A stretch of 64,000 bases of DNA, taken from the NCBI GenBank assembly GCA_043803765.1, contig JAZDJQ010000018.1, positions 32,001 through 96,000 of the forward strand, read 5' to 3'. Both the position numbers and the translations under genes were made by a program. The stretch comes from Candidatus Iainarchaeum sp. Lineage in GTDB: Archaea; Iainarchaeota; Iainarchaeia; Iainarchaeales; VGJJ01. Below are positions 39,399 to 61,083 of this stretch, in pieces (the stretch's first letter is position 1; the number at the start of each line of letters is the position of its first letter). The notes beneath the pieces were generated by a model. The model was not told where the DNA came from. It saw only the letters and a list, made by a program, of their open reading frames with translations, and ran no database searches.

Positions 39399-39576
39399 GT
39401 AGAAGAAGAGGGTAAACCAGTTCATAAAGCCCCCTATTCAACACCCACATCCATCATGAAAATGGGGGTTTTAAACAGTTACATCCATCTAAATAACTGA
39501 AAACAAGGGCAACTGCCCCAAAAACAAAGAAAATCGTTTTTTGCCAAAATGTTTTCTACCATGGAGGAATACCATC

Positions 39577-41217
39577 ATGTCCGACAACAAGATGAATCGA
39601 CAACTAATGTTTTTACCCGAAGGAAGCCGAAGGGTATTAGGAAGAGACGCTCAACGAATTAACATTCTCATCGCCAAAGCAGTAGCAAACGCAGTAAAAT
39701 CAACACTTGGACCAAAAGGAATGGACAAGATGCTCGTAGACGATCTAGGCGATGTCACCATCTCCAATGACGGAGCCACCATTCTAAGCGAAATGCAAAT
39801 TGACCACCCTGCTGGAAAAATGATTGTAGAAGTAGCCAAAACACAAGACAGTGAAGTAGGAGACGGAACTACAAGTGCAGTAGTATTAGCAGGAGGATTG
39901 CTTGCCAAAGCAGAAAACCTGCTCGACGATGAAATCCACCCTTCCATTATCATTAATGGATATCGACAAGCGGAAAAAAAAGCAAAAGAATTCGCTGCCG
40001 CCATTGCCGACCCGTTATCATTTGATGATACGAAAACGTTAAGGAAAATAGCATTAACTGCCATGACAGGAAAATCGGCTGAAGCCGAAACCCGATTAGC
40101 CGACCTTGTGGTCGATGCGATTCAAACAGTAGCAGAAAAAGAAGACACGCAATACAAAATAGATTTAGAACATATCAAACTGGAAAAGAAAACAGGAGCC
40201 AGCCTGCACGAATCCGAAATGATTAAAGGAATCGTATTGGACAAAGAAGTCGTTCACTCCGGAATGCCTAAATCAGTGGACAACGCCAAAATTGCACTCA
40301 TTGATGCGGCATTGGAAATAAAAGAAACCGAAACCGATGCCAAAATAGAAATAACATCTCCTGACCAATTACAAGCATTCCTAGACCAAGAAGAAGGAAT
40401 GCTCCGAACGATGGTGGAAAACATCCAGAAAAGCGGCGCGAATGTAGTCGTATGCCAAAAAGGAATAGACGATTTAGCCCAACACTTCCTCGCCAAAGCA
40501 GGAATATTAGCCGTACGCCGAGTGAAACAGAGCGATTTGCAAAAACTCGCTAAAAGCACCAATGGAAAAATCGTTTCCCGAATACAAGATATAACAAAAG
40601 AAGACTTAGGTCACGCCAAACTGGTAAGCGAAAAAAGAATCGCAGGAGACCAAATGGTATTCATCGAAGGATGCCGCAACCCCAAAGCAGTCACCATCCT
40701 CATCCGAGGAGGAAGCAATCACGTCGTAGATGAAGCCGAACGCGCCATCCACGACGCATTGGGAGCCGTTACTTCCTCCATTAAAGATGGAAAAGTAGTT
40801 ACGGGCGGAGGAAGCACCGAAATACAAATCGCAATGGACTTACGCGAATTTGCCAAAGACGTTGGGGGAAGAGAACAATTGGCAATCAACGCATTCGCAG
40901 ATGCCATGGAAATCATCCCCAAAACGCTTGCTGAAACAGCAGGAATGGACCCAATTGACACACTGGTAGCATTACGCGCACGCCACAAAGGAAAAGAAGG
41001 AAAATACTTAGGAGTAAATGTCTACGATGCAAAAATTGACGACATGCGAAAATTAAACGTTGTCGAACCATTACGCATTAAGACCCAAGCGATTACGTCC
41101 GCATCCGAAGTCACGCAAATGATATTACGCATCGATGATATCATCGCCGCGTCCTCTTCAGGAAAAGGAATGAGTGGCAAAGGCGGAATGCCCGACATGA
41201 GCGGAATGGAAATGTAA
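39577..41217 (+). CDS. ths: Thermosome (group II chaperonin) subunit
   Basis: [40 protein letters not shown] tail. Confidence 0.97.
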
Positions 41218-41236
41218 TACATTATCCCAATAAGCA

Positions 41237-41277
41237 GGGTGAGGGGAAAAAAATCCGCTCACCCCCCTTTTCTTTTT
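41237..41277 (+). terminator. Hairpin plus T-tract after thermosome gene
   Basis: GGGTGAG/CTCACCC stem followed by TTTTCTTTTT. Confidence 0.5.
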
Positions 41278-41335
41278 CCCCATTTTTACCCACCTAATAA
41301 AAATCGCCCCCTTGTAAGAATAATACCGTTTACAG

Positions 41336-41428
41336 GGACTCGTGGCTTATTCCCGCCTTTTTCATACGGTGATACCGAGGGAGTATGCAGTAGGTTTTAA
41401 CAAACCCACGATAAATGAATACATGCAG
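41336..41428 (+). repeat. tRNA-5'-linked ~92-bp structured unit (copy upstream of tRNA-Ile)
   Basis: Starts GGACTCGTGGCTTA (tRNA-Ile starts GGACCCGTAGCTCA); stems TATTCCC/GGGAGTA, GCC/GGT, GTAGGTTT-TAAC-AAACCCAC. Confidence 0.75.
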
Positions 41429-41502
41429 GGACCCGTAGCTCAGCCTGGTAGAGCAGCGTTCTTATACAGCGTCCGTCGGAGGTTCAAATCCTCCCGGGTC
41501 CA
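41429..41502 (+). tRNA. tRNA-Ile(TAT)
   Basis: Acceptor GGACCCG/CGGGTCC-A; D stem GCTC/GAGC; anticodon loop CTTATAC; T arm GGAGG-TTCAAAT-CCTCC. Confidence 0.88.
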
Positions 41503-41570
41503 CTTTCAATATTGCCCCGCTGAAAAAAAATTCCCTAATTTTAAGAATCCGCCACTCAATGACCTTCGGG

Positions 41571-59425: not shown

Positions 59426-59701
59426 GGCTCCGTGGTATAGCTGGATAATTTCAACGGTCGCCACGACGAGCTATTGGGTAGGGTTTTCAATCCTATTGTA
59501 GACCAATCTGCTGCATGCCCGCGTGGTGCAGTCGGCCGATTTCGCACGGCCACCACGAGGGACTACATGGTTGGATTTTCAATCCAACAGTAGGTCAATC
59601 ATTGTACACTGCCTGTGTGGTGTAGTCCGCCGTTTTCGTCCGGCGGCACCGACGGACTAACGCAGGATTTAACAATCCTGCAATAGGCCAAATAAAATAC
59701 G
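59426..59701 (+). repeat. Three tandem tRNA-5'-linked ~92-bp structured units
   Basis: Units at 59426, 59517, 59611 (tRNA at 59702); each begins with a copy of GCCCGTGTGGTGTAGTC; covarying hairpins. Confidence 0.85.
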
Positions 59702-59775
59702 GCCCGTGTGGTGTAGTCTGGATAGCATAAGGGCTTCCGGAGCCCTTGACCTGGGTTCAAATCCCAGCACGGGTG
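59702..59775 (+). tRNA. tRNA-Arg(CCG)
   Basis: GCCCGTG/CACGGGT-G; AGGGC-TTCCGGA-GCCCT; CTGGG-TTCAAAT-CCCAG. Confidence 0.93.
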
Positions 59776-59776
59776 T

Positions 59777-59856
59777 CTAGGGGTTGTTTTACAATCCCTT
59801 TACCGTTTTCCCCGGGCTTTTCTGAAAAGGCCGGTTCCGAATTCCAGCACGGGTGT
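59777..59856 (+). repeat. Hairpin element plus duplicated tRNA-Arg 3' end
   Basis: TTTTCCCCGGGCTTTTCTGAAAAGGCCGGTTC then CGAATTCCAGCACGGGTGT (13-nt exact match CCAGCACGGGTGT). Confidence 0.8.
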
Positions 59857-60974: not shown

Positions 60975-60975
60975 T

Positions 60976-61083
60976 GTCCAGTTCCGATTGGACCAACCGG
61001 CGTAGCGTGATGGCATGCCATCACTCATCCATTTTTCCCCGGGCTTTTCACAAAAGGCCGGTTCTGAATCCTCCCGCGTGCAT
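60976..61083 (+). repeat. Hairpin element plus duplicated tRNA-Leu 3' end
   Basis: TTTTTCCCCGGGCTTTTCACAAAAGGCCGGTTC then T+GAATCCTCCCGCGTGCAT (18-nt exact match). Confidence 0.8.

Follow-up and report, generated by a model that had tools for sequence, protein, structure and literature searches.

The window analysed here is a stretch of 64,000 nt from contig C18 of a Candidatus Iainarchaeum genome (a 1.02-Mb assembly of 19 contigs, 93% complete, with 46 tRNA genes). The window's genes for tRNA-Ile(UAU) and tRNA-Arg(CCG), and the promoter boxes and repeat units described below for them, including their parts, are all on the plus strand. An intact tRNA-Ile(UAU) gene is located at 41429-41503 (ARAGORN; Rfam RF00005 at 63 bits). 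In most archaea, the codon AUA is read by a modified CAU tRNA. Here, AUA is decoded by this UAU-anticodon tRNA-Ile, the gene being present at the same locus in all 16 genus genomes which were read there, and only two tRNAs with a CAU anticodon were found in the genome. Upstream lies a 558-aa ORF (39541-41217), which is read as a thermosome gene, judged from its C-terminal tail alone. Directly 3' of its stop codon, a GC-rich hairpin followed by a T-run (41233-41278) is probably its terminator. In the genus genomes G003, G012, G009 and G016, the hairpin module M described below stands where this hairpin and T-run stand here.

The space in front of the tRNA gene contains a second, incomplete start of the same gene. 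Positions 41333-41349 (CAGGGACTCGTGGCTTA) repeat positions -3 to +14 of tRNA-Ile, which are found at 41426-41442 (CAGGGACCCGTAGCTCA) as the start of the living gene. Both strings, three leader bases plus the first 14 tRNA bases, are spaced by 93 nt and are identical at 14 of 17 positions; a local alignment covers -2 to +12. An earlier note on this DNA, made from the letters alone, had reported a copy of the tRNA-Ile 5' end 93 bp upstream. Both strings are present as it printed them, and when the 250-nt upstream flank was shuffled 2000 times by mononucleotides, no shuffle reached 14/17 (maximum 13). A search of both strands of the 1.02-Mb genome gave only three other 14/17 matches, two of them at 5' ends of other tRNAs. 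The upstream copy is hereafter called the stub. With its three mismatches in 17 positions, the Ile stub is decaying. A TATA-like A/T box at 41296-41304, 32-40 nt upstream of the stub, is putatively the old tRNA-Ile promoter. Splicing of the stub to the gene body, as in a split tRNA or a tRNA with a BHB intron, is unsupported: ARAGORN found no intron-bearing tRNA (introns ≤ 116 nt) and no BHB motif was seen by eye.

Stub and gene are separated by an insert of about 76 nt, in which the only ORFs are overlapping chance ones. Its bulk is a module, termed M, at 41350-41419 (alignments A1 and A2 and covariation across 13 units; borders approximate), which consists of a first hairpin region, a linker, a second hairpin and a tail. 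In the outer helix of the first hairpin, TATTCCC (41348-41354) pairs with GGGAGTA (41379-41385) around an inner hairpin. According to A1 and A2, the conserved linker of the Ile unit is CCGA-GGGAGTA and its tail is GATAAATGAA. The second hairpin (41390-41409) has the form GTAGGTTT-TAAC-AAACCCAC. The two-hairpin architecture described in the earlier note is thus present behind the Ile stub, and both hairpins belong to the minimum-free-energy fold. The fold energy of this unit is unexceptional (z = -1.1; 27 of 200 shuffles at least as stable), and the units are not covered by any Rfam family, whether at the gathering score or with E relaxed to 5.

The same unit occurs three times in tandem before the intact tRNA-Arg(CCG) gene (59702-59775; ARAGORN, Rfam). 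Unit 1 (59426-59516; covariance-model match E = 7.4e-11) is the most diverged, as is its stub, the outermost of the array, and it is presumably the oldest. Units 2 (59517-59610) and 3 (59611-59701) complete the array, and the stub of unit 3 matches the start of tRNA-Arg(CCG) at 16/17. The four window units have a mean column identity of 69% with 35 invariant columns. A whole-genome search with an HMM built only from the three Arg(CCG) units gave E = 3.6e-5 (23 bits) for the Ile unit, with a match spanning 41341-41418 (C18 73341-73418). The only other real matches were the units at tRNA-Arg(UCU) and tRNA-Arg(UCG); the next match had E = 0.082. The claim that the Ile unit is a fourth copy of the 59.4-kb unit is therefore sustained.

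All 46 tRNA genes were scanned by comparing the first and last 17 nt of each with its own flanks, with swapped flanks as control. Upstream copies of the own 5' end, which the earlier note had suggested looking for at every tRNA, were detected at a spacing of 72-93 nt for six of the 46 genes (Ile(UAU), Arg(CCG), Arg(UCU), Arg(UCG), Ser(UGA) and Ser(GCU)). Besides Ile, four of these tRNAs have copies at 15-16/17. Downstream copies of the own 3' end were found for 13 of the 46 tRNAs at 13-17/17, and a fourteenth, at tRNA-Thr(GGU), by local alignment. With the flanks exchanged (5' ends looked for downstream, 3' ends upstream), no match exceeded 12/17. Two findings had been named beforehand as speaking against the proposal, namely an alignment to the 59.4-kb units no better than that of shuffled intergenic DNA and a lack of similar cases at other tRNAs. 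Since the Ile unit was retrieved by the HMM at the E-value given above and other tRNAs of this genome carry such copies, the opposite was observed on both counts.

The two serine cases and the 3'-end cases contain other inserts, namely single hairpins with an A/T core, and are a parallel phenomenon distinct from module M. In front of each of the genes for tRNA-Ser(UGA) (C7 19236-19310) and tRNA-Ser(GCU) (C18 15856-15927) is a single-hairpin insert of about 44 nt, on both sides of which the leader and the first 15 tRNA nt are found; at Ser(UGA), this duplication amounts to about 31 nt. Behind tRNA-Arg(CCG) and tRNA-Leu(CAG), hairpin units of this other type (window 59776-59855 and 60975-61082) consist of a T-run/A-run core held in a GC clamp, with TTCYG at the end. 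After each of them, the last bases of the tRNA are repeated from about position 58 on, with the last 17 nt matching at 15/17 for Arg(CCG) and 17/17 for Leu(CAG); within the copy, the T-loop part is longer by one base. Behind tRNA-Thr(GGU) (C14 37003-37075), three partial 3'-end copies lie within about 160 nt, two of which follow AAAAAGTGGGCAA. One match of the 3'-unit motif away from tRNAs (C18:131326) lies without a hairpin or tRNA in a long, presumed coding stretch and was taken as chance. For the 3'-end cores of the two tRNA-Met genes, no further copies were found beyond the genes themselves.

To place module M in a wider frame, a covariance model was built from A2, i.e. from tRNA-upstream units. 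It gave 236 matches in all 17 genomes of the genus, with 1-39 matches per genome at similar genome sizes. In a sample of 101 genomes of the order, all eight members of the genus matched compared to seven of the 93 others, each of the latter weakly with 1-3 matches. The genome studied here has six copies, all already known from the searches above and all at tRNA genes. Flanks were viewed for about 50 of the 236 matches. In 30 sampled loci of the genus, nhmmer detected 35 copies of M. Of these, 22 precede a tRNA in the same orientation, a number which includes two duplicate fetches and one stub-less copy in G003; one is between tRNA-His and tRNA-Arg, four adjoin a tRNA 5' end but lie on the other strand, and eight have no tRNA nearby, several of them directly behind protein stop codons. 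In G002, the richest genome (39 copies), 12 of 18 fetched regions contain M with no tRNA near, in three cases directly after a stop codon, and some copies form arrays with shared spacers as bacterial BIMEs do. M is a genus-specific interspersed repeat, not a tRNA-specific device. The proposed mechanism had been called site-directed in the earlier note, which is only partly supported. In the present genome, all six copies are at tRNAs, but in G002 the 12 regions named above have no tRNA near, and 12 of the 35 copies sampled in the genus are divergent to or far from a tRNA. Therefore, tRNA gene ends are a favoured site, not the sole one.

Stub and module together are found in this genome at tRNA-Ile, tRNA-Arg(CCG) (three times), tRNA-Arg(UCU) and tRNA-Arg(UCG), each unit starting with the first 15-18 nt of its own tRNA. 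In related genomes, they occur at Ile, Arg(UCU), Arg(CCU), Arg(UCG), Arg(CCG) and Thr(UGU). Outside the conserved core are the initial 12-19 nt of every unit, which always copy the downstream tRNA. Thus, the 5' piece is indeed derived from the target and the rest is fixed, as the comparison of Ile with Arg had originally suggested: the same module stands behind the starts of Ile, four Arg isoacceptors and Thr, and also behind 41 nt of the end of an enolase gene (see below). Mean similarity between units of one genome at different tRNAs was 0.73 (n = 17), between units at the same tRNA in different genomes 0.71 (n = 51), and 0.66 (n = 237) as a baseline. A grouping of units by genome instead of by tRNA was dropped as a claim, the measured difference (0.73 versus 0.71) being small; these values do not establish that M has spread recently inside a genome. 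Among the metagenome contigs scanned with the neighbouring 203-aa protein, no close relative was found (best hit 46% identity).

The enolase locus is where an insertion can be followed outside tRNA genes. In G009, M is situated immediately behind the enolase stop codon and is flanked by a direct repeat of 41 nt, which takes in the last 11 codons of the gene together with its stop codon and some bases beyond (alignment score 77; 95th percentile of shuffles 17). The enolase gene end was located in seven loci (G002, G003, G007, G008, G009, G011 and G015), and the other 10 loci were excluded from the comparison. The closest relative at this locus, G011 (88% identity), has the same insertion with the same repeat; G002, G003 and G007 have neither M nor the repeat; G008 and G015 have module-like remnants with no repeat visible. 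In G011, the loop of M's first hairpin additionally holds an insert of 54-55 nt, which has two hairpins and no long duplication. From this sequence arrangement, hairpin loops seem to be targets of further hairpin inserts.

Duplication lengths vary considerably. They are 27 nt at Ile in G010 (12 of them leader), 18 nt at Arg(UCG) in G009, again reaching into the leader, and about 25 nt with a gap at Thr in G016; overall, about 11-41 nt are duplicated. The duplicated segment can extend into the leader and is therefore a target duplication at the DNA level, not a tRNA-shaped part of the element. Of 13 copies of M without a stub, one has a clean flanking duplication, 11 have nothing above shuffles and one has other repeats; the copies without a flanking repeat may be old or may have arrived differently. 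At the tRNA-Ile(UAU) site itself, five of the 16 genomes carry stub and M (one unit in G000, G001 and G010, two in G002 and G006), two carry M remnants without a stub, and nine show only a plain T/A box, some 30 nt upstream. The two remnant sites are G003, where a stub-less module directly follows the thermosome stop codon, and G013, which has the second hairpin only. The A/T promoter-like stretch lies upstream of the stub in the genome studied here and downstream of the module in G003; M therefore sits at different points in these two genomes.

In approximately half of the tRNA genes of the genome, a T/A heptamer begins 30-42 nt ahead of +1. A T/A box at this distance is still present at the stubs of Ile, Arg(UCU) and Arg(UCG). 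The intact genes behind M have the T/A-rich loop of the second hairpin at TATA-box distance instead. For tRNA-Ile, this loop (TTTTAACAAA, 41395-41404) is a candidate replacement TATA box at -34, a position matching the boxes of other tRNA genes. Such a T/A-rich loop was present in 22 of 26 tRNA-upstream copies compared to six of 12 copies elsewhere, in a sample biased by having been picked with a model trained on tRNA-upstream units; the contrast is suggestive. M occupies the place expected for the promoter of tRNA-Ile, and judging from its sequence and position, the second-hairpin loop probably now drives the gene. An alternative is read-through from the old promoter with subsequent trimming of the tRNA-Ile transcript.

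Taken together, we consider it probable that 41333-41428 is the scar of one insertion of M, a mobile non-coding two-hairpin repeat of about 65-75 nt. M would have entered the front of the tRNA-Ile(UAU) gene and duplicated a target of about 17 nt (-3 to +14). The upstream duplicate would have been left behind as a dead stub attached to the old promoter, the downstream duplicate being the start of the living gene, and the loop of M's second hairpin would have taken over the TATA position at -34. Repeated insertion at one place would build arrays such as the three units at tRNA-Arg(CCG), with the oldest unit outermost.

The enzyme searches concerned with the way M moves covered Cas1, RVT_1, Phage_integrase and Y1_Tnp. 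In this 93%-complete genome, there was no match to Cas1 (PF01867; seven of 14 control genomes were positive) and no RVT_1 reverse transcriptase, while three tyrosine recombinase genes were found. An IS200/IS605 Y1 transposase (PF01797) is present once here and in three of the 17 genus genomes, and is missing from G002 (96% complete) despite its 39 copies of M. The Y1 transposase was dropped as the mover because it occurs in three of 17 genomes only and does not track copy number. Its gene in this genome (contig C4, 232-591) is about 260 nt from tRNA-Arg(CCU), and a similar hairpin-rich end sequence was observed upstream of tRNA-Ala(CGC) on contig C2. The variable length of the duplication argues against a transposase with a fixed stagger. 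Since the length varies over 11-41 nt and no matching transposase was found among the families searched, we tentatively favour copying-in at staggered nicks or template switching during replication (at stalled forks), in which other copies of M would serve as template. Movement by an unrecognised recombinase acting in trans is somewhat unlikely in our estimate.

The best of the competing explanations is that M is a functional cis element, i.e. a transcript-end or processing hairpin, a cassette of insulator or terminator and promoter, or a palindrome bound by protein, which is kept because tRNA and mRNA expression needs it, so that spread and stubs would be side effects. It draws on the conservation of the structure. 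The 13 units of A2, which come from five genus genomes, align well and share the order first hairpin, CGA..GGACTA-type linker, second hairpin and ATAGGYC-type tail. RNAalifold predicted two hairpins with compensatory changes at eight of 14 pairs; 88.6% of the alignment cells pair as opposed to 74.6% after shuffling and 31-49% with partners slid, and nine pairs change on both sides, so that both hairpins covary. The loop of the first hairpin contains an invariant TTTC, mostly followed by G, which we take to resemble a UUCG-type loop. Sense-direction copies directly after stop codons, the recurrence of M before tRNA-Arg(UCG) in five species and the T/A-rich second loops at the TATA position of tRNA-upstream copies also fit such an element. 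However, M is patchy at orthologous sites (absent at nine of the 16 tRNA-Ile loci), its copy number ranges from 1 to 39 among genomes of similar size, the Ile copy folds no better than shuffles and its stub decays, and no Rfam family matches. We consider a cis element kept for expression, with mobility as a by-product, unlikely. Considering the covarying hairpins and the positions recurring in five species, M could equally have a function. A pseudoknot pairing the stub with the module was rejected, the partners being non-homologous in position between subfamilies. A third helix of GGACTA with TAGGCC is possible; 78% of its cells pair, but only one of six pairs covaries, and no claim is made for it.

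Even less probable, at about the level of an outside chance, is an origin without any element, in which the units are remnants of tandem duplications of promoter plus tRNA that have lost their middles, the shared sequence being a common promoter and trailer. The phase of the array can indeed also be read as promoter, leader, first 17 nt and trailer-like hairpins; double hairpins similar to M also occur behind tRNA 3' ends (Leu(CAG) in the window, tRNA-His in G011), and G013 and G014 have the second hairpin before the tRNA without a stub. In contrast, the tRNAs which carry units do not have these hairpins in their own trailers, M is also found far from tRNAs and behind protein genes, the break point of the stub recurs at about +12 to +19 in independent tRNAs, and the enolase case is a clean insertion with duplication where the sites of relatives are empty. 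A miniature integrative element mobilised by a tyrosine integrase, with the tRNA piece as attP and the direct repeat as attL/attR, as in archaeal viruses and plasmids which integrate into tRNA genes, would agree with tRNA-end repeats flanking the insert, arrays at one tRNA and the three tyrosine recombinase genes of this genome, but is highly improbable as an account of the units given a non-coding insert of 65-75 nt only, one module combined with end sequences from enolase and at least seven different tRNA species, so that attP would have to be rebuilt for each target, a repeat which is not of fixed length and can include leader sequence, and many copies without any repeat.

If insertion of a mobile repeat is the correct reading, a hairpin repeat repeatedly re-fits the tRNA genes of tiny genomes with imported promoters and makes unusually long and variable target duplications without a recognisable transposase alongside, i.e. 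by an insertion route outside the textbook ones. In practical terms, the stubs give rise to false calls of partial tRNAs, and the modules mark positions of promoters and terminators in lineages in which none have been mapped. More generally, it is conceivable, though speculative, that gene-less hairpin modules of this kind multiply in reduced-genome archaea, and perhaps in CPR bacteria, without a transposase of their own. They would be copied in where DNA is stalled or nicked at the ends of structured genes under heavy transcription, above all tRNA genes, would duplicate 11-41 nt so that the gene survives, and by bringing replacement promoters or terminators would continually rewire tRNA expression signals.

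The literature searches turned up no account of hairpin repeats duplicating the ends of tRNAs. Table S3 of PMC9897764, which lists fragments from other taxa, might contain similar cases. As far as the consulted portion of the source goes, transposons and not these repeats were reported for a Diapherotrites population genome (PMC5905446). REP-like palindromes have been reported in archaea generally, with tRNA-end duplication not mentioned in the portion of that source consulted (PMC12306157). In Thermococcaceae, according to the consulted portion of PMC9897764, tRNA gene fragments flank integrated elements of 9-23 kb. M shares with such att-type fragments the direct repeat of a tRNA end, the preserved intact gene and arrays from repeated insertion, but its insert is only 65-75 nt long and gene-less, is found at many tRNAs and at a protein gene, and has a repeat of variable length. 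Being too small and too promiscuous in its partners, M is therefore not an integrase-type element carrying its own att site.

Compared to MITEs, M is likewise a small, multi-copy, non-autonomous insertion with a target duplication. It differs by lacking terminal inverted repeats, apart from a GGCC which some copies share between their ends, and by a duplication of about 11-41 nt instead of a short and fixed one. No parent element was found in the enzyme searches above. The resemblance to REP sequences and BIMEs (REPINs) comprises short length, lack of coding capacity, GC clamps, high copy number, extragenic and post-stop positions, mosaic arrays and restriction to a lineage. To our knowledge, REPs make no target duplication, have no known preference for tRNA gene ends and are mobilised by RAYTs (Y1 HUH transposases). 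The hosts of M, in contrast, mostly have no Y1 transposase, including the genome richest in copies. Casposons depend on Cas1, insert at the 3' ends of tRNA genes and create target duplications of about 14-15 bp. M likewise targets tRNA gene ends with an unusually long duplication, but it does so at the 5' end, is tiny, duplicates a variable length and resides in a genome without Cas1.
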